Source: Pecten maximus
Lineage: Eukaryota
DNA length: 64,000 nucleotides
NCBI RefSeq assembly: GCF_902652985.1
Contig: NC_047022.1
Span: 9,114,001 to 9,178,000 of the forward strand
Reading direction: 5' to 3'
Positions 5,901 through 64,000 of the stretch are shown one piece after another (position 1 is the stretch's first letter; the number at the start of each line of letters is the position of its first letter). The notes under the pieces were generated by a model. It made no database searches. It saw only the letters and a program-made list of their open reading frames with translations, and was not told the origin of the DNA. The position numbers and the translations under genes were made by a program.

Positions 5901-7980
5901 AATGTAATAAATATCTTTCTATGTTTTATTGATCTAAACTTCTCTGTGCCTCCAGTCTACACCAGTAAAGAATACGTAAAGTCACGTTGATACTTGTAAA
6001 TTAATATGTATCTCTTCATCTATATTTGAATCGCTTCATTCAATATACCAATATAAATTCCGAGAATGTCCCTAATTGATGGTTTCATTCTGACAAAAAG
6101 GGATCAGTGTGGCATGTGCAGGTCATATTCCATATGTATTGTGCACTGTATCTCGAAAAGTTTAAGGAATATGAGATACGAAATCTAATCAGCGCTTAGA
6201 GAATTACGCCGAGATGAAAGATTTCTTTTGTTTTGTTTTTTCGTGTAAAATGCGTTATATTAGTTTGTCTACTAAAATTTTTACTACAAACTACTGGATT
6301 TTTTCCTCTTTATTTCCGGGTACATTTCCACAAGAAACGCAATTAGAGAGACTTTTTTTTAAAATACGTACATGATAAGAATATATCACAAAACGTCATT
6401 TAAAACTATAATGATGTTCTTTTCATTTTCAACAGGATGACTGTCATCGTTTGTACTGCCCCGCCCATTCAGAACCAGTCGGTGGAGAATGTGTTGATAT
6501 ACAATATACAAGTGACGCCTTCATTCTAGATCTGCTGTTTGAAGCGAATATACATTTAAAAACTGGTAAAGCTATGCGTCAAATTTTTAACCGTGTATTA
6601 GGCAGCTTCGTGAAAGATTTCGGAAAGTATATAGGATCATTGTTAGCATATAATGATATACACCTAAGTCATAGGATCACTATACCGGGATTACTTTTGA
6701 ATACTGAGGAACAATGTTCTGTCATTCCTATATACATAAATGTCGAAGGAATAACACTAACTGGTAATACACTCGAATCTGAAAGGCCTTGGGTGGCGAG
6801 ATATTTCAACAACTACACCATAATGAATGAAGATGGCAGCGTTATGAGACATATAGTGGATGTACGAGATCTGTTATGTAAGACGAATGTTTCCGTTCGT
6901 AGCCCGTTATATCTCCAGGAGATGATTAACGTTGACAATGATTTACCCTGCTCAGCAGTCAAACTAGAGAATAGCGGAAACGAATCTGACAGTAAAGGCG
7001 AGACAAAGAACTCATTACTTTCTTACTTCCATCTTCAAGGAATTGTTATTTCCCAACTGGATGTTGTGTTCGCGAACGGAGACTATTTTTTGTGTATCGA
7101 TACGTTTTTATCGAAATATCAACTGAATTATCAACAGTACGATATTATGGACAGCTACAGAAGGTATATCAACACAGCATGTGCGTCTATATCAATAATC
7201 TGCATGGTGTATTGTCTGATTCAGTATTGTGCCATTCCAATTTTCCGAGACGGAAAGTCCGACATGTTAATTGTCCTGATATTGTTCTTACTTCTTGCCC
7301 AAACATGCTTCTTCATTTTTTCTCAGTCTCATCTTGAAATCCCAAGCTATGTTTGTGAGTGGGTTGGGCTAGTTCATCATTTTACATGGTTATGTGCATT
7401 TGTTTTCATGTTTCTCTGTCCATATCGCTTAAATACTGAGATAAGAGATCTTCGAACCTACAGCAGATCGGGAAGAAGGATGGCTACAGTAAAATACATG
7501 TTAGTTGGCATTTCTTTACCTTTAGTTGTCATTATCGGCATCAAAACTGCGAACTTACTTTTGGCACCTACAGAGAAATGGTATGGTGGACGTCTCTGTT
7601 TTATTTCACAAACATTCGTCATGCTATTTGGTTTCGTGGTCCCAGTATTTGTGATTTTGTGTGGAAACGTCATTTTGTTGATTTTCATTATTCATTATAT
7701 GACCTCTACATCTATTGCCGCCAATTCAAGCAGGTCTAACGTGATGGTATTCATCAAAATATCAACAGTCATGGGGTTTAGTTGGATTATCGGCATTGTG
7801 GCAACACTATCTCAGTCCGATGTACTTCTTTTAGTTTTCGAAGTCCTGTCTAATTTGCAGGGAGTTTTTATTACAATTTCTTTTTCGTGCTCAAGCCGTG
7901 TCAAGACATTTTACAAGGACTGTTTTCAGCAGATGAAAAGGAAGTCTTCAGCAGAACATGCTACGCCTTGCACTGACTGA
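2973..7980 (+). CDS. Somatomedin-B-domain adhesion/Methuselah-like 7TM receptor, copy 2; exons 2973-3935 and 6436-7980; ~835 aa
   Basis: Signal peptide MRLLLLYCLFWIIC and SMB-like motif C..CSCDWMCIYYDNCCYD. Donor GAG|gtaag at 3935/3936 and acceptor caacag|GAT at 6435/6436 are both phase 0, giving ...LSAVE-DDCHRLYCP.... Seven hydrophobic segments carry 7tm_2-type motifs (CEWVGLVHHFTWL, YGGRLCFIS, MGFSWIIG, SNLQGVFI). Stop TGA ends at 7980. Confidence 0.88.
5460..5910. mobile_element. Palindromic non-autonomous DNA element in the receptor intron
   Basis: ~155-bp near-perfect hairpin at 5467-5621 (atatctaacagtgtcttcagtaa...ttactgaagacactgttagatat) and a second palindrome at ~5803-5865 (aaaagtgatatttttcactagtgaa...ttcactagtgaaaaatatcactttt). 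Confidence 0.6.
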
Positions 7981-26835: not shown

Positions 26836-29800
26836 ATGGCGTGGACATTGATGGCGACAGTGACTGTTTTCCTAGGCCTCGTCTCTGGAACTGTAGAAGG
26901 TAAGTCTGTAAATCATATATGTATCAGTAACGTACGGCCCAGTATGGTATGAATGTGATGGGGTTTTCAAGCTCGTTTTCATTATTAAACTAGTTATATT
27001 TCACATTTGATTCTGTGAAATTCCCCCAGTATAAAATATGCTTACGGTTTGAAGGTTTTTTTTTGATAATTTAGAAACAAAGCCGTATTCACAATAACAT
27101 TACAAGCCTTACTATATCAATATAGGGGTTAAATGTCAGTAGCAATATATATATAAGTTTTTTGTTTTGCTTTTGTTTGTTTGTTTGTTTGTTGTTTTTT
27201 TTACTTAGTATGTGTTTTGTAACAATAACATTTCATTTCGGTTTTCTCTGTACTTACGTCTTTGTAATTTTCAAGTGTGTAAATGATACATGATTTAATT
27301 CTTTTCTTATGAATTAAACCAGATAGTAGACAAAAGGATTAAAAAAAATATTGTGTTTTAAAATAAATAAGCACTATTAGCCTGACAATCAGATTACCGT
27401 ATGAATGTATTATTTATACCAGTGTTATAAAGGGAAAGGTAAGTATGTCCTTATACTCCGAGACGAAGGTTACAGATTAAGTAAAGGTATTCTTTAACAT
27501 TAAGGTAACACTAAGTTCATTCGTCGAATTATCTAATTCTGTATCACGGTCAAATGAATTATCCTCCTGAATGTTAGAGTAATGTTTCACAGTAAATATC
27601 TTCAAAATTAAATAATATTCATTGTCTCCAACGTTTCAGTCAATAGGATGTGAACATGAACTCATATTCCACTATTATGGCAGACTGAATTAATGAACGG
27701 ATTGATAAAATATTTCCCTGCCCTGAGGGTGTGACAGATAAATCGCCATCCCGAGGGGTAATATTCTTGGCCGAGTGGTGATATTCTTGGCCGAGTGGTG
27801 ATATTCTTGGCCGAGCGGTGATATTCTTGGCCGAGTGGTGATATTCTTGGCCGAGTGGTGATATTCTTGGCCGAGTGGTGATATTCTTGGCCGAGTGGTG
27901 ATATTCTTGGCCGAGTGGTGATATTCTTGGCCGAGCGGTAATATTCTTGGCCGAGCGGTGATATTCTTGGCCGAGCGGTAATATTCTTGGCCGAGTGGTG
28001 ATATTCTTGGCCGAGCGGTGATATTCTTGGCCGAGCGGTAATATTCTTGGCCGAGTGGTGATATTCTTGGCCGAGCGGTAATATTCTTGGCCGAGCGGTA
28101 ATATTCTTGGCCGAGTGGTGATATTCTTGGCCGAGCGGTGATATTCTTGGCCGAGCGGTAATATTCTTGGCCGAGTGGTGATATTCTTGGCCGAGTGGTG
28201 ATATTCTTGGCCGAGTGGTGATATTCTTGGCCGAGCGGTAATATTCTTGGCCGAGCGGTGATATTCTTGGCCGAGCGGTAATATTCTTGGCCGAGTGGTG
28301 ATATTCTTGGCCGAGCGGTGATATTCTTGGCCGAGCGGTAATATTCTTGGCCGAGTGGTGATATTCTTGGCCGAGCGGTGATATTCTTGGCCGAGCGGTA
28401 ATATTCTTGACTGAGCGGTGATAGTCTCTGCCGAGCGGTGATATTCTTGACACGAGGGGTAATATTCTTGGCCGAGCGGTGATATTCTTGACACGAGGGG
28501 TAATATTCTTTGCCGAGCGGTGATATTCTTGGCCGAGCGGGGATATTCTTGGCCGAGCGGTAATATTCTTGGTCGAGGTGGGGTATTCTTTGCCGAGCGG
28601 TGATATTCTTGACCTAGCGGTGATATTCTTGACACGAGGGGCGATATTCGAGGCTTTGCCGAAAACACATCCCAATGGTGGGATATATCTATGTCACGTC
28701 CTCAAAAACCGTAACCCCATATTACACTGTACATTTATTTTCATAATTTACGCAATTGTGAACGATGAGAGAAAATAACATAAATGAATGAACGACGTAA
28801 AAACCGTTAATGAATGAAATGAGTGAATGAAAATAAAAAAGGAATAAATTTGGATAATCGATGAATTGAATCAAATGAGGATCGAATATGAAATGAATTC
28901 AGGTCATAAGTAGGTGCGCAGACCCCAAAACTAACATTTTTACAATGTGACTATTGCAAAGCACAAATACACATATTCTATGTCATAGAATGTGGTTTTG
29001 CTATACCCCTCATCGAAACTGAAAATAGCAAGATGCGTGTGTAGATTTATTGGCCTGGAATATTTTAAGGATATGTAAGATATATCCCTTGATGCCGTTA
29101 ACCAACTGATCAATTATTGGATTCTTTCACTTTTAAAGTATTTAGATTAATGCAAAAGATAATTGCTTCTTTATAATTGCAGGCCAAAGAATCGGAAATG
29201 GAAACGAAACGAAAGTCACACATCACGTGACGTCCAAGAATTTTCCACAGCCTTATCCCCGGAACTCCCATCAGCAATGGAACTTCAGTATGGAACACGG
29301 TCAGTGGAAAGTCATTTTCAGGACAGTGGACATCGAAAAGTCACGTCGCTGTCAAAAGGACTATCTTCACATTTACGACGGAGAAAACTCAAAACAGTGA
29401 GTCGTATTCAAGCGTATCGAAATAAAATATTTAGAAAGATTGTACAAAATACATGTGATGTATAGACATCCTTCAAAACACATACTGTAAACGTGGTTAT
29501 TTTCACGGGGTTAATTTCGCGATTTCGATATTTAAAATATACGCGTTGGGGGTAATTTTCGCGATCGATCCACCTTCGTTTGTAGTTCGAGATTATGCAA
29601 ATTGATATCAACATAATATGTGTGAGAGAAATTTTCGCGATCAAAAGGACTCCGGGTAATTAGCGTAAATTCCTCCCTCGCGTAAATTTCCACGTTTACA
29701 GTACGATACAATTCGATAATTTCATATTTTTGAGATATTTCTTTTCAAAAGAACGTTCAATACACGTGCAAATTTTAAAAGGTGCCAGAAGTATTTTTGA

Positions 29801-40580: not shown

Positions 40581-41329
40581 TAGTCATCTGACCCTAAACG
40601 TTAATCATAATCAAGTGCAATTTATTCATGACTAGGGATTAATGAGAGCTAGACTCATGACGTAAGGATAAACGTTAAGTGGCACTTAGTGGCTCGTACT
40701 TGTCACGAGCATCAGAATTTGAAAAAAAAATATAGTCACGCTCATAATCATATCACGTCACAATGCTACAATTACATGTTTTTTTTGTAAATGGAGAGAT
40801 AGTTTTAAGATTAAATGGCCAAAATTATTCAGCTAACTGCGGGCGTTTAATAAAGCAGAAAAGTAGACAAAATTACATTTTCTTATTTTGTCTATTTTTA
40901 TCTATGTTATCTACTTAATATAAATCATAACATACATGCAATAAATCTGTACTGCGTTTCAAAATGAAGTCTAAATATTTTTATAGCTGTATAAACAATA
41001 GCGTGAGCACGTAGATATGATTATAATTTATCAATCTTTCCTAAGTTGAGAAAGCTAAATTGGCAACCAGTACTATACCATGCCGGTCCCCTGAATAATA
41101 CTTCTAAACAGATATAGGACGTTCTTCTTCTTCTTAATCGTTGGCAAATTCCGTCAAAAATTACGATTACATCGACAATTTTTTGGCAAAAGGGACGTGG
41201 ACAGGGTTATATATACAGTGATTTGTTTTCTATTATTATATTAGTGCAGATAAGATAAAAAAAGGTAAAAGATTTGTTGATTTAGTGTATGGGGACTTCA
41301 ATGGCTACGTAGTAGATATATGCCTTGAA

Positions 41330-42230
41330 GTCCTCATGTGTAGTGCATTGTACTGCTGCTAAAGGAAGGAGGTTCCACTAGTGTGTTATTGTGTGTGGGG
41401 AAAATGAGTATTTGTATGTGTCCTTCGTAGCAGAGATATGTCTTAATGAGTGTGTGCATGTTTAATTTGTTGAATTTGGTTTGTGTTATGGGGTCCCATA
41501 TAGAAGAGCGGTATTCCAGTTTGGGTCTAACTAGTGCTTTGTTCGCAAGTTCTTTTATGTGTGGTGAGTTAATTTTAAGATTGCGTTTCAGAAAACCTAG
41601 TGATCTGTTTGCATTGGAGGTGATGTTGTTGATGTGTTTGTCCCATTTTACGTTGTTTTGTTGTGTGAGCCCTAAATGTTTGCTCGAGTCTTCTTGTGGG
41701 AGTGTGTGATTGTTAAGAGTGCAATCATGGTGTATTTTGGTTCGTTTAGGTGTTATATTTATGACATTGCATTTGCCTGGGTGAAACTTCATCATCCAAT
41801 CGATTTCCCATTGTGCTGCTGCGTGTAGATCTTCTTGTAGATTTAGTGTGTCTTTCTTGTTTTGAATTGCTTTGTATATGATCCTGTCGTCTGCGAATAG
41901 TCTGAGTGCACTGTGTTATAGACGAGGAAAAGGATAGGTCCCAAACAGGTTCCTTGAAGGACTCCTGATGATACGTGTATTGTGTCGGATGTTTTACCCT
42001 CAAGTACTACTGTTTTGTGTGCGTTGTGAGATAAAGTCTGTGACCCTTGCATGTGTGGTTCCTGTTATGCCGTAATATGCGAGTTTGTACTGCATTTAAC
42101 TGCGTTTATGTGGGATTTGTCAAAAGGTGTGGCAAAGTCCATGATGATGATGTCTATCTGTTTGTTATTCTTGTTGTTTTGTGCGAGGTCGTGTATAAAT
42201 GTGGCGAGCTGAGTTTCGCATGACCTATAC
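41330..42230 (-). mobile_element. Decayed LINE reverse-transcriptase fragment (CR1/L2-like clade)
   Basis: Broken-frame motifs SGVLQGTCLGPILFLVY, MKFHPGKCNVI, WDKHINNITSNANRSLGFLKRNL and LVRPKLEYRSSIWDP. Confidence 0.85.
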
Positions 42231-43124: not shown

Positions 43125-46100
43125 ACTAATGCCCCTTTACATACCTACCACTACACCTAATGCTCCTTTACATACCTACCACTGCACATAATGCTCATTT
43201 ACATACCTACCACTAAGCCTAATGCTCCTTTACATACCTACCACTACACGTAATACTCCTTTACATACCTACCACTACACCTAATGCTCCTTTACATAAC
43301 TACCACTAAACCTAATACTCCTTTACATACCTACCACTACACCTAATACTCCTTTACATAGCTACCACTAAACCTAATACTCCTTTACATACTTACCACT
43401 ACACCTAATACTCCTTTCCATAACTACCACTAAACCTAATACTCCTTTACATACCTACCACTACACCTAATACTCCTTTACATACCTACCACTACACCTA
43501 ATACTCCTTTACATGCAATGGGGGCAGCAGGTACAATTCTTACGCCCTACCTGCAAGGCAAGAGGCGACTAAATTTGGGATCTTATCTTTTCACTTCTTC
43601 CTTAACAACTTTCTTCTTCCTAGCGTCTCCCTTGACACTGCCTCACTTTTGGCCTTTAGTTGAGCGTTCGCCCCTGTGAGGAAGGCTTTGGGTTCTGTTC
43701 CCTAGCCGAGACATACCAGAGTCTTTAAAAATGGTAGTTGCTACTCCTGCTTAGCGCTCAGCATATTTGGAGTGGGACGACTGGTTTGCCCGTTGTCAGT
43801 ATAATGTGACCGGGTGGGGTGTGCTGCTGGGTGTCTTCGGCAGTATGCTTCAGTGAGGTAGCACTTTAAATCGGCAAAAACTCCGGCCTATCACAAGGAG
43901 ACTTTACACGAACATACCGCAGCCTCCCAAAACACACATACGCACTCACCACACACACGCATGTCGCACGCACGGGAGGCCGTCCTTAAATGACCTTAGA
44001 TGTTAATAGGACGCTAAACTAAATAAACCAAACCAAACCAAACCAAACTCCTTTACATACCTACCACTACACCTAATGCTCCTTTCCATACCTACCACTA
44101 AACCTAATACTCCTTTCCATACTTACCACTACACCTAATACTCCTTTACATACTTACCACTACACCTAATACTCCCTTCCATACCTACCACTAAACCTAA
44201 TGCTCCTTTCCATACCTACCACTACACCTAATACTCCTTTACATATCTACCACTACACCTAATGCTCCTTTACATACCTACCACTACACCTAATCCTCCT
44301 TTACCTACCTACCACTACACCTAATGCTCCTTTACATACCTACCACTACACCTAATACTCCTTTGCATACCTACCACTACACCTAATACTCCTTTACATA
44401 CCTACCACAAAACCTAATCCTCCTTTACATACCTACCACTACACCTAATGCTCCTTTGCATACCTACCACTACACCTAATACTCCTTTACATACCTACCA
44501 CTACACCTAATACTCCTTTACATACCTACCACTGCACCTAATGCTCCTTTCCATACCTACCACTACACCTAATGCTCCTTTACATATCTACCACTACACC
44601 TACCACTACACCTAATACTCCTTTACATATCTACCACTACACCTAATGCTCCTTTCCATACCTACCACTACACCTAATACTCCTTTACATATCTACCACT
44701 ACACATAATGCTCCTTTACATACCTACCACTACACCTAATACTCATTTACATACCTATCACTACACCTAATACTCCTTTACATACCTACCACTACACCTA
44801 ATGCTCCTTTCCATACCTACCACTACACCTAATACTCCTTTACATATCTACCACTACACATTATGTTCCTTTACATACCTACCACTACACATAATACTCC
44901 TTTACATACCTACCACTACACCTAATGCTCCTTTACATATCTACCACTACACCTACCACTACACCTAATACTCCTTTACATATCTACCACTACACCTAAT
45001 GCTCCTTTACATACCTACCACTACAATTAATACTCCTTTACATACCTACCACTACACCTAATACTCCTTTACATACCTACCACTACACCTAATACTCCTT
45101 TACATGCCTACCACTACACCTAATCCTCCTTTACCTACCTACCACTACACCTAATGCTCCTTTACATACCTACAACTACACCTAATGCTCCTTTACATAC
45201 CTACCACTACACCTAATACTCCTTTACATACCTACCACTACACCTAATGCTCCTTTACATACCTACCACTACACCTAATACTCCTTTACATACCTACCAC
45301 TACACCTAATACTCCTTTACATACCTACCAATACACCTAATACTCCTTTACATACCTACCACTACACCTAATGCTCCTTTACATACCTACCACTACACCT
45401 AATACTCCTTTACATACCTACCACTACACCTAATACTCCTTTACATACCTACCACTACACCTAATCCTCCTTTACATACCTACCACTACACCTAATGTTT
45501 CTTTCCATACTTACCACTACACCTAATGCTCCTTTACATACCTACCACTACACCTAATACTCCTTTCCATACTTACCACTACACCTAATGCTCCTTTACA
45601 TACCTACCACTACACCTAATGCTCCTTTACATACCTACCACTACACCTAATGCTCCTTTACATACCTACCACTACACCTAATGCTCCTTTCCATACCTAC
45701 CACTACACCTAATGCTCCTTTACATACCTACCACTACACCTAATACTCCTTTACATACTTACCACTAAACCTAATACTCCTTTACATACCTACCACTACA
45801 ATTAATGCTCCTTTACATACCTACCACTACACCTAATGCTCCTTTACATACCTACCACTACACCTAATGCTCCTTTACATACCTACCACTAAACCTAATA
45901 CTCCTTTACATACCTACCACTACACCTAATGCTCCTTTACATACCTACCACTACACCTAATGCTTCTTTCCATACTTACCACTACACCTAATACTCCTTT
46001 ACATACCTACCACTGCAACTAATGCTCCTTTACATACCTACCACTACACCTAATACTCCTTTACATACCTACCACTACACCTAATGCTTCTTTCCATACT

Positions 46101-46455
46101 TACCACTACACCTAATACTCCTTTACATACCTACCACTAAACCTAATGCTCCTTTCCATACCTACCACTACACCTAATACTCCTTTACATACCTACCACT
46201 ACACCTAATGCTTCTTTCCATACCTACCACTACAACTAATGCTCCTTTACATACCTACCACTACACCTAATACTCCTTTTACCTATCACTGCATCTAATG
46301 CTCCTTTACATACCTACCACTACACCTAATACTCCTTTTACCTACCACTGCATCTAATGCTCCTTTACATACCTACCACTACACCTAATACTCCTTTTAC
46401 CTACCACTGCATCTAATGCTCCCTTACATACCTACCACTACACATAATGCTCCTT
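43125..46455. repeat. 31-bp satellite (cctaatactcctttacatacctaccactaca), interrupted by a SINE
   Basis: About 90 tandem units with strong C/A versus G/T strand asymmetry. Confidence 0.97.
43515..44046 (+). mobile_element. Long Meta-type SINE insertion with 12-bp target-site duplication
   Basis: TSD actcctttacat at 43503-43514 and 44047-44058; core aaaaatggtagttgctactcctgcttagcgctcagcat; (AAACC)n tail. Confidence 0.85.
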
Positions 46456-48876: not shown

Positions 48877-49386
48877 TACGAAAGTAAAAGTAGGCACAGT
48901 ATTGTAAGTTAACATACTACTAAAATGAATGATAGTCTCGAATAACTGCATATAGTTTCAAGGACATTGGACAATCGATTGAATAGATAGAGAAAAGACA
49001 TTGGTCATCTAAATATAGTAAATGAAGTCAATTTAGACCTCATGAGTTTAAATACAATTTTGTACAAAGGATGGTAAATGTGAGTACGTGTATAACGCTA
49101 CAGAAATATTGGGTAATGAATGAAGTCAGTAGCGAGAGACCGTTGACAATCTATTCATTGTAAAATTGATATTGATTATGACACCAGTTGGTTGAAATGC
49201 TTCCTTGTACTAGAAATCATGTTTGTAACTAAGTGTATGCAGTTTTTAGATCATGCACGGTGTGGATAAATCGAAAATATAATTTATAATAATCTACACC
49301 ACATCATTGACTCAAGTGGTTGAAACATGATCGCATACAAGAAAATGTGTGAGCAAGTGTTTGAAGCACGAGATGACCAACTTATA

Positions 49387-50875
49387 TCAGATACTAGAAA
49401 ATGTCAGCATTTTCCTTGGGATCAGATTCCAGATTCTTGCTTTCCAGAGTATGGCCATAAAGTAGTCACCTGTCTTGAAATAGTACTGTCTTTTGGTTGT
49501 CTGGATAATTAGAACCCAGGAATCTGAAATAAAAGACAATTTTAAGTGTTTCGACAGACTAAGTTTTAAACATGGAACAACTTATATAAACCAATTCTTG
49601 CTTTTTCGATTTTTTCGTTTTACTGTAAATTCGTTCGCTTTGACATGAAAAACCTATCGAAACTGAATCGAAAAATATATCCTTGTTTCGAGATATAAGA
49701 CGTCAAACTTTATTTCTATCTCTGCCTGACATTACCAAATAATTACAGAAGCCATTCGTGGCAATCATCAGATTAAGAGAGGTGACATCAGAGTCGCTTA
49801 CTAATGTGGACGAGACATATGTGTGGTACTAAATAATTGGCTGTTTTGGGAGGCTGTGGGTTTTTTGCTTGTCTTCATGTCATGATAGCGCGCAACTGTT
49901 TCAAATGTTACAACTCTACCTCACTGAGGCAACTCGCCGAAGACACCCCGCAAAGCAAACTAGTCGTCATACTCCCCAGAATGCTGAGCATTTAGCAAGA
50001 GTGCCGTCTTACAAACACTGGTAGGTGACTCTAACAAGGAACGTGATTGCACCCAAACACTCACCTAAATGCTTAAGTAAGAGCAGTATCAACGGGAAAT
50101 AAGCAAACAGAAACTTGTAGGGAAAGATGAGAAAAGAAAACTGACCTCAATTTAGTCGCCTTTAAAAACCGACGATGTGAGAGCAGATGCGATGCTAATG
50201 TTGTAAGTCAAACATAGGAAATCAATTAAAAGCACACTGGCTTTTAAGGTATCAATATTTGATTTTTATGACAATTTGCAAGTGATCTACTGTTCTGTGT
50301 CAGATGCCAAGATTTTCATTTCCGTTCTTGTTGATATAGCTCTAGCAATGAAGACATTTCATATCAAATCAAGACTAATGTCAAATATTATGCAACAATA
50401 TAACCCGATGAGTCATGTGGCGGATGAACGATTCCTAAATCCCATTGGTCGATGCTACATGCGAATGGGACCCAAACCAAATAAAGAAAACATGAAAGGC
50501 CACATGTGTAAACTTGGATATCGGTGCCGAATGGGATCATTTCCTACTGTCCCAATGCAGCGCGATACAGCAAGACGGTCCTGCATTTCCAGTTTTTTTC
50601 AAACATAAAAGACGCCGGGGAAAGGAAACCCCAGGTCCGTTAGCGTCGCCGAAGACAGGCAAACGTCTACATAATGTCATTGCACATCCCAATAAACTTA
50701 CCTTGTACTAAATCCATATCGACACGAAGGACACGAGAAATGGGACATTTTCTCTTCGGTGACGTTCTGTTTCTGTCAATATCTCTCCATTTTAACTGCG
50801 GTACATTGTTCTCAATGCAGACTCTCAACTCAACCAGGTGGTCCCAACCGTTTGAGGTCTCCTTCACAAATCTTC
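49387..50875 (-). CDS. Last two PKS exons, encoding a PH-like domain
   Basis: 50875-50702 + 49523-49387 splice in phase 1 to give GRFVKETSNGWDHLVELRV...LKW...PKRKCPISRVLRV...DSWVLIIQTTKRQYYFKTGDYFMAILWKARIWNLI...*. Confidence 0.75.
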
Positions 50876-53800
50876 CTATAAAAAGTGAATAGGTAACATG
50901 ATAAGAATAGACTATAATAGTTGAAAATAACAAATTTCAATAGTGGTAAAGTTGAACATATAAAACAGGATGACGTTTCATGGCAAACATGTAGGAAGTG
51001 TAAAGAGAAATATGATATTAAGAAGGAAACTATTGTGAAATAACAGAAAATATCTCAAGTTCAGGTGCATCAGACGGACAATACTTGGGGTACAGCAAAC
51101 AAAACTATCTTCCAAAAAGTAGAATGTCTTTTTGTTGGCATGGTAGTTAAAAGTAAACCTGAAATTGTAGGGATCTTGTAGAGACTATGTTTTGTTTCCT
51201 TATTTTCATTTAACACCCATTTCAACTAAACATACATATAAACATATTTCGCATTCATGCTTTTTAGTAATTTTTGGCGTTTTCTGTAATGGTCCGAAGC
51301 ACATTAGCTCCAATATTCTTTTTATATATGCAAACTTGAACGAATTGTTTATCTGTTAATATGAAATATCAGTTGTTTTCAGGAAAAAAAAAAAAACATG
51401 ACCCGATACCCTGCATGCATAGTATGTATTTACCTGATAACAGTTGTGGATCCACTCCGTCCACAGCCTCGGCTGGAGAGCACCGTAAGGGAATGTTGTC
51501 AAGACTTATATCAGAATTCAAGGCATTTACACAGGCCAGTAACAGAAGATCTTCAAGCATATTGTTTGCTGTAGACAAGCTTACGATGGTTGGGTCGTAA
51601 CTTAATACGAAGTCCATCGATCCTGTCTGGGTATCCGTGACGATATTTAAAGCTGTTTCAATGTGGTTCAGAAAGCCAGTGTTATATCCGGAGTGTTTCA
51701 TAGTATGGTTTGGGTACTTCTCGTGTTTGAATGTTTGATTTGATACATATCTGACATTAAAGAAATGGCGAAAAGCGTTGGCCGCATCAGGATTGTTCTG
51801 TTTGATGAGTAGAAAAGGGTACAGACTGTGCGTGCTTGCAAGAGTCATTTGACTTGCACAGATTCTGATACAATCTCCAAGTGTAGCGGGTGTATCGCTA
51901 AACGCTGTTACGATCGGGATATAGTTGGTACCAAGAAATACCATGCTGGTAAACTCTGGTAAGTGTCGTCGCATGTCCACTGTCAGTACAACGGGAGTGA
52001 CAGGTTGACGCGTCATCTTGTGGAGAAGAATTTGGTAGAGACAGAAGACTAGGGTAGGTCCTGTTACACCTTTGTCGTTCTGATTAATTTTGTCTACTAA
52101 CTCTCTTGGAAGGCGAATCGATATCTGTTCCGTCTTTCCAGACAGAGGAACCAATGACTCAGACTTGACGAGAGACGGCACAGTATGAATTCTATCAAGC
52201 TCCCCTTTCCAGAACTCCTGGAGATAAAACCTCTCACCATCAAGACGTTCTTCCATCAGATATGTTACATCAGGGACATCTGCAGTTTCTAAGTTGGTAC
52301 CCGTTCCCATCAGGTATGTCTGTAAGTCCGCCTGGAACTGCGGTATCAGCGTGAAGAAGCTTTGTAAGTCAAATGTGATGTGGCTCATGACAAACCTGAT
52401 GTGATGTTTCCTACCTGTATTGCCATAAATCAACCGCAACGGCGGGTCTGTGGTGATGTCGAATGTGCAGTACTTGACCATATCCTCGTCTGTCCAACCC
52501 TTTTTAATCACAACGGAATCAACCACTCGGAAATCAACTTGGGCATCCTCTGGATCCAAAACATGCTTTTTGATACCGAATCTAAATCGTTCCTTAGTAG
52601 GATGGTACAAAGTCCTAAGTTCTTTATTTCTGATTGTTGCCCATCGCAGGACAGTACGCCAAAGTTCGATATTCGATAGACCGGTTCCCAGTTTGAAATC
52701 TATACTGAACCAAAGACTAGAGTCAACGGGAGAGTCTTCATGCATGTCGATGTAGAATTTTTGCATCCATGTTGGTGATTCACGTATGTCCTCCTTTATT
52801 TCCGAATTGTCATTAGTATTATTATCGATGATGTTTGAATGTACAAAGTCGATAATCATGCCGATAGTATAGTTAGGAGACAGGATGTAAGCAACCGGAA
52901 GTCGACAGCCTGTAGCCTCATGTACAATCTGGATCAATTCCACAGATTTTTGGGACTCCATACCTAGTTCAAGAAGGTTTTGATTTTCTTCCAAGTAATT
53001 TTCATCTAAAGATAACACCGTAGAGAAACACTTTAATAATAAATTAACAAGTGTCTTCCTCTGTTGCTCATGTGATGTCGATTTGAATTCAGCAATGTTA
53101 AGAACAGTGTTAATTTCGCGCCTTCGAATTGCCGACTGATTGAAAATGGTGCTCTCTTCTTGCTTGTCAACGATAGAGGTCCGTATAATAGAAGGGTTTT
53201 TACCGACTACGCTCCAGTCAAACAAACCAAATATGGATTGACATGGATTTCGAGTCAGGCAATCCATAAGGCATTCTTTGATTTTGTCTGTTTCAAGCAG
53301 ATAATGCCCCTGTGCTTCTAGGTTGTTTCTGATGTTCTCATCACTCGCCATTCCCACCGCCAATGCGCCCCAGTTGATCGTCTGTCCAGGTAGGTTGTTG
53401 GCTCTTCTGTAAAAGGCAAAGGCATCCATGAATGAGTTCGCAGCTCCATAATTAGTCTGTCCAGCATTTCCAAAGACAGATGTTGTTGAGGAATGCATGA
53501 CAAAGAAATCCAATTTTAATTCTTTAGAGATAAGGTGTAGGTTCCAGGATCCAAGAACTTTTGGCGCTAAGACTTCTTTGAACTTTTCAATTGTCATGGT
53601 TTCAATACGAGCATCTCTTAGCACTCCAGCTCCCTGGAATATACCTTTGACTGGATGATTTGGAAATTTTAACTTGATTGCAGAAAATACATTTTCCACA
53701 TCAACAAAATTCGCAACATTGCAAGTCATTGGCACAATTTTGTACTTGTGTATATCCATTGCATTTTGGAGTTGATCTTTCATCTGTGGATTGACACCTC

Positions 53801-56800
53801 TCCTTGATAGTGGTACTACAATGCCAGCACCTCTGTGGCCCAGCCATTTGACGATGTCCCATCCAAGGCCTGTCAACCCACCAACAACAACATACGTTGC
53901 ATTACTATGGAAAAGTGTGTCACCTTTCGCTTTTATGGCCACATCCGTGACATCCCCGCATCTTTTGTCAGGGAGATTGATGGTTTTAAGCTGTAATGAC
54001 TTTACTGCATTTGTCATAAGGTCATGTCGTTTTTGTCGTCTTTGCAGCCATCTCGTTACTTTTGGAAATGTTTTAGCAACATTATTTTCCTCAAACACTT
54101 TCGTCTTTGCAATGGTTTGTACTTTTATTCGTTTTGTACTCAGTTGAATTTTCTTATTTGATAGACAGAGTATCACATCATCAAAGCCTACAATGGTATT
54201 CCCCGGCTGTAAAATGCAGTCTATTTTCTGTTGAGGATAAGTTTGCAACAATACAAACACGCAACCCTTTTGTTGATCGTCCTTAATTATGGAGGCGAAT
54301 GATGTAACTCGAACTTTGCTTTGCCTAACAGTCTCAAGCATGTCACAGAGAAGGAAAACTTCCCAATCTTCAGCCGGGTCTGCTTCAGTCACAACACAAA
54401 CTGTAGATCTGCGCCTAATTATCTCAGTGATGGCCCAAATCAACATGGACTTTATGATTAGACCGGGTTTGTACATTGGCAAGCTTGCTATGTCGCATAC
54501 ACATTGTTTTGGAACGCAGATTCTATTGGAAACTCTCGATGGGTAACATGCCACAACACGGCTGGATCTTTGCGCGCTAAGGATGGTGCCTTGAAACTCT
54601 AACGCAATGACTGGATATCCCCCGCTGTATTCTGACCAAAGTGATTTGCTGATACTCGTTTCCAACTCTGTTAGTCGAAAATCTGTTGGCGAGTGAACAC
54701 ATATTTCCTCAACCAAAAGTATGACCTCATTATTTCGAAGTTCACAGTTTCGATCAACAGGTGTCAGAAATGGGCTCTCAATGCTGTCCCAAGTAATAGA
54801 CTGTAGCTCAAGGTCGCTGTTTGTGTCAGTGGATATGACTCTTTTTTCGCTCTGTAATCCATTCTGTGTCCTTTGCTGTAGAAAGTTACTATGCAACTGT
54901 CCATCAACGATGATAAATTCCGTAAATGAAGGAGGGTTGGACGTAAGAACTTCAATAGTTTTGTGCAATATCGCTAATTGCGAGGCAATTGTAGGCTGCA
55001 CATCTATCAGAATCATTCGACATTTCGTTCCTTCCTGTCTTAAAGATCTAGCAAAACCCCATAATTCAGCACCCAATACATTTTTATCAGTAACTGGTTC
55101 AGGAACGTTTGCTTGTGTGTTCTCAGTAATTACTATCACTGGCTTTTCCAAGTCTTTCACCCTTTGAATGGTGTTAAGGAAGGCGTTACAATTTTTGCAA
55201 ACACGACTAAACAGATCGTTTCTACATTCTCTTTGATTGAACGAATCTGGGACAAATATCAAAACATCCGTCTGTTGTAAATCACTGGAGGTTCCCAATA
55301 CAGCGTTGTCTTCCAAATCAAGCAGACTAAATGATTTTCCTATTGGGTATAAACTTCTCAACATTTCGCATATGTTGCTATCGTCGAAGCAGATTGTAAC
55401 GCTTTCCTGCTCTTTATCGTTCACGTTGTTGCTAATCGCAGGGACATCTTCAACCGCCCAGGTAATCTGATAAGCAAGAGCGTTTACTGTTAAGCCATCG
55501 TTCATAATCTTGTGTTCGATTTCCTTAACTTCAGCTAGTACCAGACCGTCAGGTCTAGTTAGAATGATGTTGGTGATAATCCTGTCATAGACTTTCTGTA
55601 TTACTTGTGTATAACATATCATTTGCTTCTCAAGTCTTCGTAATAAGGATACGCTGCCGAGGCGAATCGGATAAATCTTGTTTAAAGATTTATTGTGAAC
55701 GGAAAAGAAATCCAGAGCACTGGAGTGGAGCATGGCATCTAGAACAGCAGGATGGAAGGCAGTCTGGTTAAGTTGTCTTGTTACATCCTCAGTAAGTTGG
55801 ATATATCCAGTATATTCATCTTTGCCGAATGTAACCGATTCCAAAACCTGGACTGGAGCGCCGTATTTGTAGCCATGTTCAGCTAGTTTGCTGTAAATTG
55901 TATCTCGTTCCATTTGTTTCCCAGTAGGTATGCACAATTCATTAATAGGAACGATGTGGTTTTGTGCACGGTTTTTGTTTGTGATAGATCCTTTGACTAC
56001 GGTCGTCGCATTTTTTAAAATAGAGAAAGATACCCTGATAACACCATTACCCTTTTCTGTAATATCAGATATCAAATCGAGACGAAAGGGCTTTCCTTTG
56101 AACAAGGGAATTGATTTGATAATTTCGTACTCTACATGCATGCTTTCAGCTGATATGCCCATGGTACTCATTCCAAGCTCATATGCCACCTCCGCGTAAA
56201 CAGCGCCTGGAATGATGATGGCGTTGTCTATAGCATGATTATATACAAACGGCGTTGCAGTTGGACTAAAGTTGACGTCAAATTTCCCTGCTGCCTCTTG
56301 TTTTGTGATCATAAGGCATTGGTATGAAGAATCATCAACCAATCCTTGTTTCCTGAGGAAGCGGTAGTCTGATTCAATCATCAAGCGTTTGCCATCAAAC
56401 TGGTAGCTGGGAAGGTCTGTCGGGTTGTCTTTATCTACAATATTTTCCCATTTCGGATTCAGTCCAAGCGCATACAAATGTCCAAGAGTATTTCGCACTT
56501 GTGAAGATCCAGTCTCAAATTTCATGGAAGGAAACGCTGCGACATCTTCATCGTTAAATATATCCCGTAAATGCGCTTTCAAAACAGGCTGGGGACCAAT
56601 TTCTAGGAATATGGTAGACTTCTCATCTGCTGATACCTGAAGTGCCTGATGGAACAAAACTGGTCTAGCGACGTTTTGTTGCCAATACTCCGGAGTGCCG
56701 AAGTCGATTGCAATCTTTCCCGTTACAGTGGAGAATATAGGTATGTTCGGTGTATCGGTTTCTATCCCTTCCAAAGCTTCTTTAATGCGCTTGGCTGAGT

Positions 56801-59800
56801 CTTCTACCTTGTAACTGTGGTAAGCGCAATTTGTTTTCAAATCACTGAAATACGGTATTTCATTACTTTTTTCAGCATCTTCTCTTATGATTGTTTTTGC
56901 TTCTTTCACTTTCAGATCGTCACCAGTTAGTGTGCATGCGACGGGACTGCTGTATACTGCGATCCCGACCTGACCAACCTTGTCACATATCTTGGCTACG
57001 TTTGTGGTATCAGCATTCCTAACCACAAGCATTCTCCCTCCCAATACCTCTGCCAATAATTTTGATCTGTAGTAGATAACTTTAACTGCATCATGCAGGG
57101 ACAGTGCCCCACTACAGTAGGCAGCGGCAACCTCTCCAACAGACTGACCGACGGTCGCATCAGGGCATATTCCCCAATGCTTCCAGAGGTTTGACAGTCC
57201 TACTTGGCAGGCAAAAATGCCAATATGACCAATGAATGGGTCTACCATATCTGCACCTTTTCGTATTTTGTCTGTTATTGACCAGCCTGTAAGTGGCATC
57301 AAATGTATATCTATACTTTGCAGAGTGTCAGCGAAAACATGAAAGTCACTTAAAAGTTCCTTGCCCATATGTGTCCATGCAGTTCCAACACCACAGAACA
57401 CGTACACTAATCTGTAGTTCCTGCCTGGTGTAATATTGCTGCTTGATATCGATTCAATTTCATAAGAGCAACTTTTTGTGAGGTCAGCAATTGTTGACAC
57501 GATGAACATCTTTCGATATCTATGGTGATCCCGTCTACACGAAGCGGTGTAGGCTAATTGCTTCAAACTGTATGGTTCGTTTGTCAATCTTGTTAGCAAG
57601 TTCCTCATTGTTTTTTCTAGGCAGATCTGAGATTTAGCTGAAACAGGAACACATATCATCTTCTCAGCATTTTCCGATCTAGACCTAGATTTGTCTGGTA
57701 TCTCAATCCACTGCCTTACAAAAGCGTGGCTGTTTGTGCCACCAAATCCAAAACAGTTGATGCAAGCAGCTCTGGAGCCATCTTGTAGAGCAGGCCATCG
57801 GTACACGGATGCTGGCACATCGAGGGCATAACCCACAAAGTCTATCTTGGGATTCCTTGGAAGAGAATGGAGGGAGGGTACAATTTTCTGATGCTTCATC
57901 ATAAGAAGAGTTTTGATAAGACTTGCAACCCCAGCTCCGGATTCGAGATGTCCAATGTTAGTTTTAACTGATCCAATAAATCGTTGCCCATACAGTATCG
58001 GATGATCTTTGAAGAAGCGACCAAGACTGTTGACTTCAACAGGGTCACCAATGGGTGTACCAGTTCCTATAAAAATGGGAAAAGAGAGGCACCTAATATT
58101 TCCACCGATGAATTTATATAAAATTACCGTTATAAGGATTTAATATATTAATTGACAGTATTATTAAATTCATAATATATCATAATACATGTATTTATAT
58201 AGCAATCACCGCAATATCTTATAAAATACAATTATTAAATGCAAGATACTGTAGACGGAGACATTTAGGTGACGGCAAATTATGACGGTTTCTCATGATG
58301 GTTTTATTTTGGTCTATATTTACCGTTTTCAAAAAACCCGTGTCAAAGTTTGGCTTGTTTCGATATTCATACTACATTACCGATGTCAAATCAAATACTC
58401 TTCATAGTTGAAAGGATCATAAGGAGTTTTACCAAAATTGTGAATTTCCTGACCTTGGGGTCTCACTTTTGCTCCTGGGAAGGGGGTAACCTTAATTTTA
58501 GTTTACATAGGGAAATCACATTTTTAACTATGATTTGTTTGATTTTTATTGGAATTAACTCTAACTTTGTTAACGTCATCGGCATGGGATGACAGCTTGA
58601 TGGTATGCACTTTTGGCTGACCTCCTTGGTTGATGGGCGGGGCCAAAAAGTGTCAACTAAAATATTTCAAAACTCGTTAAGGCCCTCTTGTTTTCAGGTG
58701 CAGATTTTTTCCAATTCAAGAACTATTCCCCGACACAGCCTAGATGTATTCTCGTCAAAAGTCGTCACCCGACCACATTCCTGTTATTCAACGGAATACC
58801 CATTAAGTTTAATACGTATCAATTGCCTATAGATATTGAAATAAGAACAACCCCAATCACGTGATTTAATATGAACCACCTGGTGATGAAATTCAGAAAT
58901 CTGAAATACGTATATTTAGACTCTAATAATTTCGATGAAACTGGGTATAGAGAAGATTTAAAAAAAAAATCTAACCTTTGCGTGTTTGGACCCAACTATT
59001 AGTCCTTTCGATAGTCAGTAAGGGTCAATATGTTCGTACCTTATATACCATATAAGCAAATTCCAATTGATTTCAAAGGAAATAAAAAAGGATGTTTCAA
59101 AATCTGATTGCGCTATATTAACTTCAGATTTTTTTTTACTTCGTCCTCATTGTGGGATTGGGCGATTGGTTCGCCCGTTGTCAGTATAATGTGACTGGGT
59201 GAGGTGTCTTCAGCAGTATACTTTAACTGAAGTAGCACTAAGATTTTGGCGCCAGTTCCACGTTATCACAAGTAGACAATGACGACCATACCACAGCCCC
59301 CCCCCCCCCCCCCCCCCCCCCCAAAAAAAACAACCCCACACATGATGTTGTGAGTGCGTCTCCTTGAGAAGGTCCGGAACTTTTTGTCGATTTATAGTTC
59401 TACCTCACTGAAGCATACTATGACGTAAGTTTTTTTTTCCTAGCAATTTTTGGTTTTTAGCAGAACGTTTTATAATTTCAGTCAATTTGACCTCTTTTTG
59501 CCTCTTCTATCACGCCCGTGGAATGGGGACCATATAATACAAACATTGTGGTTAGCCTTTGGTTATGGAAAGTTTCTGCGGGACACAATTTTATTAGTAG
59601 TTTGTTGAAAGAAGTCGAAAATGTAACTTGTTTACGGACAGACAATGGTGTTGACCATGGATTAAGGATTATAATAATTATATTAATTAGAAATTTCATA
59701 TTAACATTAATACATTTAAGATAGAAATCTAAATTTCTGATTTTTTAAAAGTGCAATCAAATTTTAAATGATAAATTAATATTTGCCTACCGTGTGCTTC

Positions 59801-61654
59801 TATGTACTGGACATGGCTTGGGTCAATGTTGTAGGAATGGTGATATATATCACTAAGAAGCTTCCTCTGTTGGACCTCAGATGGCGCAGTGATGGGTTTT
59901 GCGGTCTTGCCATCTTGGTTACAGCCCGTACGGATAGTCGCCCATATATGTCTGTTATTTTCAAGAGCCTATGAAAACGTGTTACATAATTACATGTTTG
60001 AATCTGGTTTTAATCTTAAATATAAGAATTTATAAGTTTGATATAAAGTTTATTCCGTCGCTGGAAATAATTTGTTTTAGTTTCGACCGCCGTCACTTTA
60101 AAATGTTTATTTTGGTATCGACCAATCAGACCAGTGCTTCCCAGTAGCCATTCTAAAGTTTTAAGCCATCAGGCTTCGTCAAAGTGACGCGATCCAAGCA
60201 ATTTGATTTAGAAAAGGCTATGGATTTTTTTTTAACACACAGTGGGGAAAATAAGAGCTGGCGCCTTTAGTATTGACTTCTTCATCAGCTTAATAAATAT
60301 TACTTTGAATTTCAAAATGGCGCCATAATGACAAACCCAACGGCGTAATAAATTAGTTCCTAATGACAGGTGAAATACATTTCCATACACTTACACTTTT
60401 GTGATGAGTTTAACAGTTAATTGGTTTACTTAATTGGTATTTGCTTATAAACAATTATCAAACCAAGTCGTTCAATTGGGTTTACTCAGACAGAACCCTA
60501 TGCACATGTCCCCTACCAGATATGAACGGTATGGCTGAATGTATCGAAATAACAAAAATGCTTTATGTTAGCACTAATTACTTATTGACTGAATTCCATA
60601 ATAGACCTTGGGATGTCTCGGCTACGAGACAGAACCCAAAGCTTTTGCTTGCTGGGAAAAACGCATAACTAAAAGCCAAAATTGAGACAGTGTCTTCGGA
60701 GATGCTAGGAAGTACACGTTATTTTTAAAGAAAGAAGTACAGAAAAAAAGTTAAGATCCTAAACTGTGTCGCCTCTTTAAAAGCATCCAATGGGATAGAA
60801 GGTACAATTCTTAAGCCCTAACTAGAGGTAATCCATGTGCACAGACCACTTACATCACTGAGCCGCTCAAGTATGACAATGCCGCATCCCTCTCCTCTTG
60901 CGTAACCATCAGCGTTAGCCGAGAAGGCTTGACACTGTCCGGTAGGTGACGCCATCCGGGCCTTCGTCAGAGTGACAAACATATCTGGATATAGAATACT
61001 GTTGACTCCGCCACAAATCGCCATGGATGACTCACCTAGGTAAATATGATATACCTAGTTAAAACGAATAAACAATAAATTGATGTTTTAATTTAGATCG
61101 GAAACAATTATTCCATTATTATTGTGAGCCTAATATTTTGATGATTTGAAACACATTTCTGAAATCTGATTTTGGTTTTTGAGACATCATACACTGTTAT
61201 CGCAAGTGCATGGAAGAAGAAGAAGAAGAAGAAGAAGAAGAAGAAGAAGAAGAAATATCAACGTTCGTTTTGGGTAGACGATTACTTACCTATTATCAAA
61301 GACTGTGTTGCCAGGTTGATTGCCACGAGAGAAGAGGAACATGCGGTATCTATGGTAAGGGAAGGGCCAAGCAGATTGTAGTTGAAGGACACTCGAGCTG
61401 AAATGATGCTGGTGGCGTCTCCAGTCACGGTGTAATTTGTCAACAGTGAATAGTCCCCGTCTTTGGCCGACTTTGCGTCACTGTTCATTGCGCCAATATA
61501 CACGCTCGTTGGCGAGCCGTCCAAATCTGCTTTCGTGATCCCGCCATCTTCCAATGCCATGTGAGTACATTCGAGGACATATCGTTGCTGGGGGTCCATT
61601 TCGGAAGCCTCCTTTTCCGAAATTTCGAAAAATTCGTTGTCCCAGACATCATGT
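49387..61654 (-). CDS. Animal iterative type I polyketide synthase, KS-AT-DH-psiER-KR-ACP-C-PH-like; exons 61654-61290, 61035-60854, 59968-59791, 58066-51434, 50875-50702, 49523-49387; 5' exon(s) outside the window; ~2555 aa in the window
   Basis: KS: MDPQQR, DTACSSS, EAH/GTGT, KTNIGHLE. AT: GQSVGE, AYHS. DH: YNHAIDNAIIIPG, HPAVLD. KR: GGLTGLG, GAGVLRD, GQTNYGAAN. ACP: LGMES. C domain: SHITFD. All introns are GT-AG with consistent phases (1,0,1,1,1). TGA at 49389-49387. Confidence 0.93.
49770..50165 (-). mobile_element. Degenerate Meta-type SINE in the last PKS intron
   Basis: Reverse-complement similarity to 43515-44046 (ctacctcactga, gccgaagacacc, atgctgagc, aatttagtcgcc). Confidence 0.6.
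51434..58066 (-). CDS. PKS 6633-nt exon (KS C-terminus through AT, DH, psiER, KR, ACP and C domain)
   Basis: Contains nearly all of the 2177-aa ORF. Acceptor tttatag|GA completes the HG/TGT motif; donor TCA G|gtaaat at 51434/51433. Confidence 0.93.
61213..61254. repeat. (GAA)n microsatellite in a PKS intron
   Basis: About 14 perfect GAA units; the source of the poly-K and poly-E spurious ORFs. Confidence 0.95.
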
Positions 61655-64000
61655 CTGTAAAAATAATTTGCAAATTGAACGTTTTTTTAATCATCTTTGT
61701 ATAATCTTTAATTTTGTTTTATCATATCTCATCATGTTGGATAGAGTTTGCCCATGTAAGATAGCTTTGTAGGGAAAATCTATCTTATCTTATCATCTAG
61801 CCAGAAATGTTCGCAGCATGTATCACATTCTTAAAAATCAAGACAACCCATGTTTTAGAAAATATTTGTTTCGCGGTGTATCTGACTCATTTTCACATTT
61901 ATGGTCACTTTCACACGTCAGAATTTAGAAGGATATAGATATATTTAAAACTAACATTTTATTTATTTTTTGAAGAAAAAGATAAACATTTCTGGATTAG
62001 TGTTATTATTTTTCTTGCTTGAAATATTTTACGTTGAACATATTTGCACAGTGACATAGTTAAAGTTGAGATCTGAAGACTTTTAACCTAATAATACATT
62101 TTCATTATAAGTAGATATAGCAATAGTTCAATTATACTGACTGTAACGATTGAAAGTTTAAATTATTTTATTTGTACAAAATAGGGAAATATTAACGATT
62201 TTAAACATAGTATACCGTATATCGGGTTTTTTTTTAGCGAGTGTCTAATTTTCACTATTTTCGCGACCAGACTCGGTCGCGAATTTTAAGATATCGCTAA
62301 AATTAATCACATATCACAGTAAGAGTTAGCTCCCTTGTATGGGGTGTTGTCATGAACCGATCACCTGTTTACACGTGCCGTATACAGGTGTGCTCAATTG
62401 GCCGTGACTTATTTAATAAAAAATGAACTCACAGTTGACCATATGTTTTGTCCTTCGTATAGATATATTTAAAATCATATCGAGAGTGACATTGCCAAGT
62501 GAAACATGGCCATGCTACGATTTGTAATCGTTACGCGGAAGGACAAAGGAAATCTGGTCAGGTACAGACCTGAGTTTGCTGAAGCAAACAAAAGTGTAGA
62601 TACATTATCATTACTGTACTTCGATTTTGTTGTATATGAAACATATGAACGCTAAAATTTGAATTACACGTTGTAAAAACGCTAAAAATGAAATACGCTA
62701 AAAATAAAACGTGTCATTTTGTACAGAAAACGCGAAATTTGGCATACGCTATTTACGGTATTTAAAATATCACGATACATTCTTAGTGTCTGTTGCGTTA
62801 CACAAATATATCTCAGGGGGTCATGAAGTACATCGCTCGTGAAAACAAGTGACAAGGCGGTAACGTTGGACAGGTTAACATAACTGAGATACTTTACACT
62901 ATGAGATATTGAGGTCGATGAATAACTATTCTACGCCGAATAGGGGTTATACATATCTGTATGTCGCTACCTGAGGTACCGTTCACCTAACGACCCCCCC
63001 CCCCCCCCCCCCCCCCCCCACCACAACACCTTTACGGTATTGGTAAATTGAACTTGCGTTGACGTCATCAATGTATGTGCATGTGCCTTCAAGCGTTCAA
63101 TATACGTGGACTTGTCACAAAATTTGAACGGACCGCTTTGTGAAGAATGCGCTGTCAATCGAGGTATGTGTTGTCCCGTAATTGGTTTCAAGAAAGTATT
63201 GTATCGTAACAATGTATATTTTCTTCATTTATCTTGACAAAGCAATAGCTATTCGCAATGAATAATGTTTAATTTGATAAGTAATGGTCAGCTAAGAGAT
63301 GCAGCGAGTAAGCTTGTGTTCAAATGGATTTCTTGGCCACCATCCATGAATAATTCTCATTATTTTGACGGACAAATTTCAAGCTCTACGTCTGTCAAAA
63401 GTGATTTACCGGCAACATGATTTATTTAACATGTCTGTCAGAAGATGGTGTATAACATTAAAGACTTGTTGTTATTTATTTCAAGACCATACTTAAAATT
63501 ACAGGAATTTTGATATTTCAGCAATTGTTTTACCATATCGTACTTGCAGCTAAGGTAGGCCAAGTTTGACAGCCATTTACATTTTTATTTATGTTTGTCC
63601 CCCCCCCCCCCCCCCCCCCCCAGGACACACGTACAAAAACACAAACATTAAAAAAGCATGATGGTTTACTAATTAGAAGTCACGTGTTTGGAGAAATAAA
63701 TTTACACATGTTGAGTAATGACATGTAAGTTTAAGACAGGCAAGTGTCTAATTTAAAAAAAAAAAACGGAAATAGTGCTGATATAGGGGAAATTTATATG
63801 TATTAGATACAGGTAAGGCTGTAGTCATTTACCTGTGAAAACTCATGCATGCATATCTTATCAGTGAGGTTATTTTACCGATCGCAACGAAAATGTTTTA
63901 ATTAAAATAACTTAAATTCTGAAGATGAATCATGTTGCTAATAGAATAATAAAACTATAAAATTGAATTTGAATTATGAAACATGTGATAAAATGCATAT

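Follow-up and report, generated by a model that had tools for sequence, protein, structure and literature searches.

What does a condensation (C) domain do at the end of an animal polyketide synthase (PKS) that has no adenylation (A) domain and whose active-site motif departs from the canonical one? We considered this question for a gene of Pecten maximus that lies in a 64,000-nucleotide stretch of contig NC_047022.1 (assembly GCF_902652985.1, positions 9,114,001 to 9,178,000), hereafter the window, in whose numbering all coordinates are given unless another contig is named. The C-domain sequence is 100% identical to that of RefSeq LOC117332102 of this species, a gene on the minus strand, and a chain of exons joined at GT-AG sites reproduced the RefSeq model up to residue 2580. 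The layout comprises one exon beyond the window (exon 1, ~69013-69221 in window numbering), three short ketosynthase (KS) exons, one exon of 6.6 kb and exon 6; four introns fall in the KS region and two at the 3' end, with the 6.6 kb exon between them. Exon 2 (61290-61654, minus strand, as are all exons and domains of the gene) carries the active-site Cys (DTACSSS) and matches Pfam ketoacyl-synt, exon 3 (60854-61035) continues the ketosynthase, and the last residue of exon 4 (59791-59968) is the first catalytic His of the ketosynthase (EAH/GTGT). By exon chain and Pfam, exon 5 (51434-58066) holds the end of the KS, followed by the acyltransferase (AT), dehydratase (DH), pseudo-ketoreductase, pseudo-enoylreductase, ketoreductase (KR), acyl carrier protein (ACP) and C domain. 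Over positions 49000-62000, RNA from 4 of the 23 listed runs covered only small parts of exons 2 and 3, with one exact 184-base contig at depth 5 among them, and nothing of exons 5-7.

The synthase ahead of the C domain has its motifs intact, namely the KS Cys/His/His, the AT Ser, the DH His and Asp, the KR Tyr and the ACP Ser. The AT (56517-57407; Pfam Acyl_transf_1, 149.7 bits) bears GQSVG and AYHS motifs, which suggest a malonyl-like specificity. The DH (55512-56282; Pfam PKS_DH_N and PS-DH) is conserved, with its catalytic His (HxxxxxxxxP) and Asp, and no methyltransferase insertion was seen between the DH and the KR of LOC117332102. What lies there, in an AlphaFold2 (AF2) model, is a structural pseudo-KR and then a domain of enoylreductase (ER) fold (53970-55460), which superimposes on the ER domains of JamJ and CurK with Z 15 and rmsd 4.4-4.5 Å over 256-265 aligned residues. 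The glycine-rich NADPH motif of ER domains, of the GGVG type, is missing from this region here and in all 32 family proteins tested. The KR (53361-53900; Pfam KR, 179 bits) shows GGLTGLG, the B-type-like VLRD and the catalytic Tyr (YGAAN), and the ACP (52842-53042; Pfam PP-binding above cut-off) carries its Ser at 52953-52955 (GMES).

Animal enzymes of comparable build have been described. MuPKS of the parrot and OlPKS of the medaka are, like LOC117332102, iterative KS-AT-DH-KR-ACP synthases with no working ER, and no C or PH domain is listed for OlPKS (PMC6334511, PMC11739604, PMC4604110). MuPKS makes a polyene pigment, a product ascribed to its inactive ER, and the same account cautions that products of iterative PKSs cannot be safely predicted from motifs (PMC6334511). 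Judged by motifs and fold, LOC117332102 has the MuPKS-like profile of an active KR and DH with an inactive ER. With an ER that lacks its NADPH motif, LOC117332102 probably makes an unmethylated polyene. The architecture itself, KS-AT-DH-KR-ACP-C, is already known, as Lin et al. (2024) list mollusc PKSs that include a C domain and have few introns, these at the 5' end; their mollusc PKS-C clade resembles our gene in this domain order, in its N-terminal introns followed by a giant exon and in a GQSVGE AT motif, and Pecten is placed there under clade 6 (PMC10764717). Section 8 of that paper gives the architecture alone, with no active-site analysis, product or PH domain (PMC10764717).

The C domain (51450-52802) follows directly on the PP-binding match, and scores 55.5 bits against Pfam Condensation (PF00668; cut-off 30.6). 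The preliminary description, made from the letters alone, had recognised four C-domain motifs behind the ACP, and all four indeed lie in a single minus-strand frame (51369-58139, 2256 codons): SPTWMQK at 52758-52778, RNKELRTLY at 52605-52631, FDITTDPPLR at 52434-52463 and MSHITFDLQS at 52359-52388. An AF2 model of the domain (pLDDT 87.2) matched NRPS C domains closely (Foldseek E 1e-24; VIA Z 35.1, rmsd 2.8 Å over 404 residues for 7kvw), and its best matches were ordinary elongating NRPS C domains; free acyltransferases fitted less well (PapA5 Z 23, BAHD Z 17). Identity to solved C domains is ~15%, and a search of PDB sequences with the single C-domain sequence returned no match at E<=10, so that an alignment profile was needed; with one family alignment the PDB search returned mostly KS-AT matches. 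The family profile places the active-site loop SHITFDLQS (xHxxxDxxS, 52359-52385) on the HHxxxDG of SrfA-C and LgrA. By profile and predicted fold, then, the terminal domain of LOC117332102 is a true C domain.

Its active site is not canonical. In place of HHxxxDG, LOC117332102 has SHITFDL, in which, as the preliminary description had read it, the second His (H2207, codon 52380-52382) and the Asp (D2211, codon 52368-52370) are retained while the first His and the Gly are changed; Gly follows the Asp in 0 of 65 family rows. In the terminal C domains (CT domains) of fungi, too, Ser replaces the first His. Those domains bear the motif HXXXDXXS and release their products by cyclisation or hydrolysis (PMC11546977), and TqaA and IvoA share with our gene the terminal place, the HxxxDxxS form (here HITFDLQS) and the lack of a downstream acceptor module (PMC11546977). 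They differ in context, NRPS there and animal PKS here, and the structural match to the TqaA CT domain is the weaker one (Z 27.4 vs 35.1). Because HxxxDxxS is known from fungal CT domains, the variant motif is in itself unsurprising; what had been presented as a peculiarity of this gene turns out to be the normal form of its lineage.

We defined the family from a homologue search of 50%-identity representatives (237 matches, of which the best 150 were listed), retaining the 63 of 165 proteins with a profile score >=140, NRPS domains scoring <=123. Named members, among 20 proteins looked up, come from scallops, Mytilus, Pinctada, Sinanodonta, Potamilus, Mactra, Liolophura, Patella and Branchiostoma, and the only new named taxon entry from a further homologue search was one more Mactra protein. 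None of the 63 proteins has an A domain. Likewise, in agreement with the preliminary description, which saw no A domain in the gene or elsewhere in the window, a Pfam scan of 17 of the 31 window ORFs and of the RefSeq LOC117332102 protein returned none, and genome-wide, where 13 of 173 AMP-binding candidates were scored, all 13 matches lie outside the window. No TE domain was found in nine PKS-C proteins scanned with Pfam.

Because the C domain is conserved and all 63 family proteins lack an A domain, release onto a free molecule, as originally proposed, is the leading reading. We give about an even chance to the view that the C domain takes the completed chain, likely a polyene, off the ACP and passes it to a free acceptor, probably at a membrane. 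Malonyl units would be used iteratively, with reduction and dehydration and without enoyl reduction or methylation, yielding an unmethylated polyene as in MuPKS; the C domain, the sole candidate release domain in the protein, would then pass this chain, by means of its retained second His, to water or to an amine or alcohol that is not tethered, and a C-terminal PH domain (see below) would bring the enzyme to a membrane, or to a partner protein, for export. The best functional analogue is TwmB (Hai and Tang 2018), reportedly a fungal reducing iterative PKS whose terminal C domain acylates a free amine; TwmB is fungal and is said to have a canonical-type motif, and we know of no PH tail in it. 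On this reading LOC117332102 would work like TwmB or like a CT domain while being a member of neither group.

The conservation of the motif bears on this reading in two ways. The preliminary description had proposed that the His and Asp be compared among orthologues, and in orthologues and close paralogues both are indeed conserved. The Pecten maximus genome yielded 10 matches at 9 loci, with at least nine KS-AT-DH-KR-ACP-C genes, and the His and Asp of xHxxxD are kept at 9 of 9 loci; the catalytic His is likewise kept in 21 of 21 scallop rows (20 distinct), among paralogues as little as 25% identical in the C domain. Across the family the His fares differently. In an alignment of 66 rows (63 proteins and 3 loci, one being a fragment without the region and one pair being identical), all 65 rows that cover the motif have its Asp, and 36 have the catalytic, second His, leaving 29 without it. 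A first-position His occurs in 22 of 65, alone in 21 and together with the second His in one, from the lancelet; 8 of 65 have neither, and 44 of 65 have Ser at the Ser position of xHxxxDxxS. One example in the supplement of Lin 2024 reads SCVVFD, without the catalytic His (PMC10764717).

These states follow the tree. A C-domain phylogeny, also proposed at the outset, was built by quick IQ-TREE from 87 rows, with 25 NRPS C domains as outgroup and four short fragments left out, and it sets the family apart from the NRPS domains; over this tree and the FastTree analysis below, the support for that separation is 99-100. Within the family are two groups, one of 21 rows, 19 with HxxxxD, and one of 37 rows that includes LOC117332102, 32 with xHxxxD and 5 lacking the catalytic His. 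The split persists with the motif columns dropped (FastTree, supports 95 and 85); there the lancelet sits on a long branch whose basal placement is unsure.

A mechanism that does without the His is the foremost alternative to release by the C domain, and we consider it a serious though less probable one. Here the domain would be a non-canonical C domain like that of LovB, needing the Asp and not the His, which binds or shapes the growing ACP-bound chain (by chain-length control, shielding or cyclisation) while a separate hydrolase releases it. In ClaE, a LovB-like enzyme, the Asp was essential, the residues at both His positions were not, and a separate TE was needed (PMC13492342). LovB and ClaE (HRxxxDG) share with our gene an iterative PKS, a terminal C domain and an invariant Asp (PMC13492342), and the mollusc sister group shows the same HxxxxD pattern; LOC117332102 differs in having kept the second His and lost the first, and in the absence of Gly after the Asp throughout the 65 rows. 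With an Asp that never varies and 29 of 65 rows lacking the His, a ClaE-like pattern, His-dependent transfer is not established, and to this extent the original proposal is weakened. The sorting of the two His states by branch, with the motif columns dropped as well, argues the same way, as does the greater invariance of W2264, H2412, E2448, D2342, R2344 and N2359 compared with the catalytic His.

The lancelet adds a further point on this side. In Branchiostoma floridae protein P0069, residues 2196-3102 run in the order ACP-TE-C-PH, with an intact-looking TE (GHSMG) and an HH motif in the C domain. A TE between the ACP and the C domain speaks against release by the latter, as the C domain need not release the product there. 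Against the LovB-like mechanism stand the 20 of 20 distinct scallop sequences that keep the His even though their paralogues are as divergent as noted above, and the window, where a scan of 17 of its 31 ORFs showed no partner TE gene. H2412 and E2448, moreover, align with residues present in SrfA-C and thus give no proof of a new active site, such as a relocated His-Glu pair that the two might form.

Release onto a free acceptor was one of two options raised at the outset, the other being an acceptor supplied in trans. This would be canonical condensation with an aminoacyl carrier protein from a stand-alone A-T protein, an arrangement suited to a domain whose nearest folds are ordinary elongating NRPS C domains and to a genome that does contain A-T-containing genes. 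A genome-wide search of the kind that had been suggested, in which 17 carrier-domain candidates were scored besides the AMP-binding ones, gave 13 carrier-domain matches: eight PKS-C genes, two FAS-like genes, one broken PKS and two A-T genes, both of which end in a reductase of their own. One of the 13 AMP-binding matches was a formyltransferase-A-T-reductase gene, and the remaining 12 were frames of 510-585 aa that lack a carrier motif. Genome-wide, then, these searches turned up no stand-alone A-T protein, though they are lower bounds, as intron-rich genes can escape them. With the A-T genes so equipped, and with a product that would require an extra release step, we judge supply in trans to be improbable. 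The formyltransferase-A-T-reductase gene (L024/L011, at 5.62 Mb of C3) is intronless, has 1666 codons and resembles the bursatellin NRPS, and the other A-T-reductase gene (L035, at 28.87 Mb of C6) is rich in introns. A stand-alone frame of 511 codons on C16 (L032, 4527-6062, minus strand) carries HHAIADG and is CoA-dependent acyltransferase-like or C-like, below the Pfam cut-off.

That the C domain is a decaying relic, its variant motif a loss of function, is least credible of all: its low identity to solved C domains and the broken frames at some paralogous loci of this assembly would suit a relic, but dN/dS is 0.18-0.31 (15 pairs from 6 loci; dS >1.2 for the distant pairs), the C domain of one paralogue is 82-87% identical among four scallop genera, the predicted fold is confident and full-length, and the domain is retained from lancelet to bivalves. 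As estimated from these codon comparisons, the C domain is under purifying selection; the catalytic His codon alternates between CAC and CAT. The broken frames belong to three loci, L002, L006 and L007/L008 (C12, C17), where they lie in the ACP-C region or close to it; these loci are pseudogenes or assembly errors. A further locus (L036, at 10.79 Mb of C10) is a fragmented PKS-like pseudogene that retains parts of DH, KR and ACP and has an intact paralogue 1.5 Mb away.

The protein does not end with the C domain. Two more exons follow, exon 6 (50875-50702), which is in the RefSeq model and encodes the first part of a PH-like domain, and a predicted exon 7 (49523-49387), which is not, and which encodes, in frame behind an AG acceptor, the last strands of this domain, a C-terminal helix and the stop codon. 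RefSeq instead ends LOC117332102 on a short exon (49963-50031, minus strand) that truncates the PH-like domain. Exon 7 shares 60% identity with the final part of paralogue P0003, and the tail spliced to it scores 125.6 bits over profile positions 3-98, compared with 67.5 bits over positions 3-68 for the RefSeq tail; this predicted splice thus fits the paralogues far better than the RefSeq final exon does, and gives a corrected protein of 2625 residues.

A profile of a 15-row tail alignment matched the PH domain of GRK2 (E 3.4e-6) and further PH domains; at E<=5 it matched 39 PDB sequences in all, ribosomal L38e among them at E>=0.09. Pfam PH was found in 4 of the 15 tail rows (best 1.6e-4) and stayed below the Pfam cut-off in full-length scans, and Atlas assigned the tail to PH clusters (0.89), which we take as a lead only. 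At E<0.01 the tail was detected in 21 of 63 family proteins, 10 of these being seeds of the profile, and those bearing it include mussel, unionid and lancelet members; in the Pecten maximus genome it also stands, as separate exons, behind two distant paralogues. The other 42 of 63 proteins gave no PH match, many of them being single-exon ORF calls, although named models of Pinctada, Liolophura and Mactra, as well as one gene of Ylistrum, also end without PH. The basic phosphoinositide motif of PH domains is KxR. Judged by eye, scallop tails have the Lys of strand 1 and seem to lack the KxR, which looks present in the lancelet. The many family proteins that end without PH, and the scallop tails that seem to lack KxR, count against the leading reading. 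On this profile evidence, a PH-like domain is encoded here that was overlooked by both the preliminary description and RefSeq. We found no description of such a domain behind a PKS C domain in the open-access literature searched, and the word 'pleckstrin' had 0 matches in 11 of the 18 supplement files of Lin 2024 (PMC10764717).

While terminal C domains of PKSs and variant motifs are already known, and the motif alone is ordinary, three things go beyond this: a PH-like tail that follows the C domain in animals from scallop to lancelet, the split of the His between sister groups, and a lead towards polyene pigments. The second is in effect a test, set up by nature, of how the C domain works: the Asp never varies, and each sister group has retained one or the other His. 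The third starts from Raman work that describes many mollusc shell pigments as unmethylated polyenes (bioRxiv 10.1101/2023.05.17.541181). An animal PKS with a dead ER and no methyltransferase would make such polyenes, and is thus a candidate source of shell pigments. In the freshwater pearl mussel, two adjoining PKS transcripts are at 0.16 and 0.00 in white nacre tissue and reach 5.49 and 4.09 where the nacre is purple, and the authors read these genes as makers of naphthoquinones (PMC12652611). For the PKS-C family, we infer from the intact KR and DH that a naphthoquinone product is disfavoured. A scallop-shell study counts against the pigment idea, as it takes its Raman polyenes to be possibly carotenoids (PMC11004421).

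We tentatively suggest that the PKS-C-PH family may be an animal-encoded source of the unmethylated polyene pigments of mollusc shells and pearls: targeted by its PH domain, the enzyme might use its C domain to attach the polyene, at the secretory membrane, to an acceptor that is a lipid, an amine or part of the matrix, and the two sister groups, each keeping a different His of an ancestral HH, might have come to differ in release chemistry. OlPKS is localised apically and yields a secreted lipophilic product for biomineralisation (PMC4604110); LOC117332102 may instead play a similar role in biomineralisation or make a defensive lipid, and the nine Pecten maximus paralogues may differ in role.

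The remainder of the window holds several unrelated features. Tandem repeats occur at 13577-14669 (155-base unit), 19618-21950 (66), 27751-28649 (20) and 43126-46455 (31), and account for long frames in two places, 19.5-22 kb and 27.6-28.7 kb, as well as for swings in GC skew. A stretch at ~41300-42150 (minus strand) resembles by eye a decayed LINE reverse-transcriptase fragment, with no Pfam match in the one frame scanned. A C1q-domain gene lies at 15180-16179 (minus strand), and frames of secretin-family 7TM proteins at 1-1116, 2952-3989 and 6415-7980 (plus strand) form a small GPCR cluster, one of them with a weak somatomedin B match.
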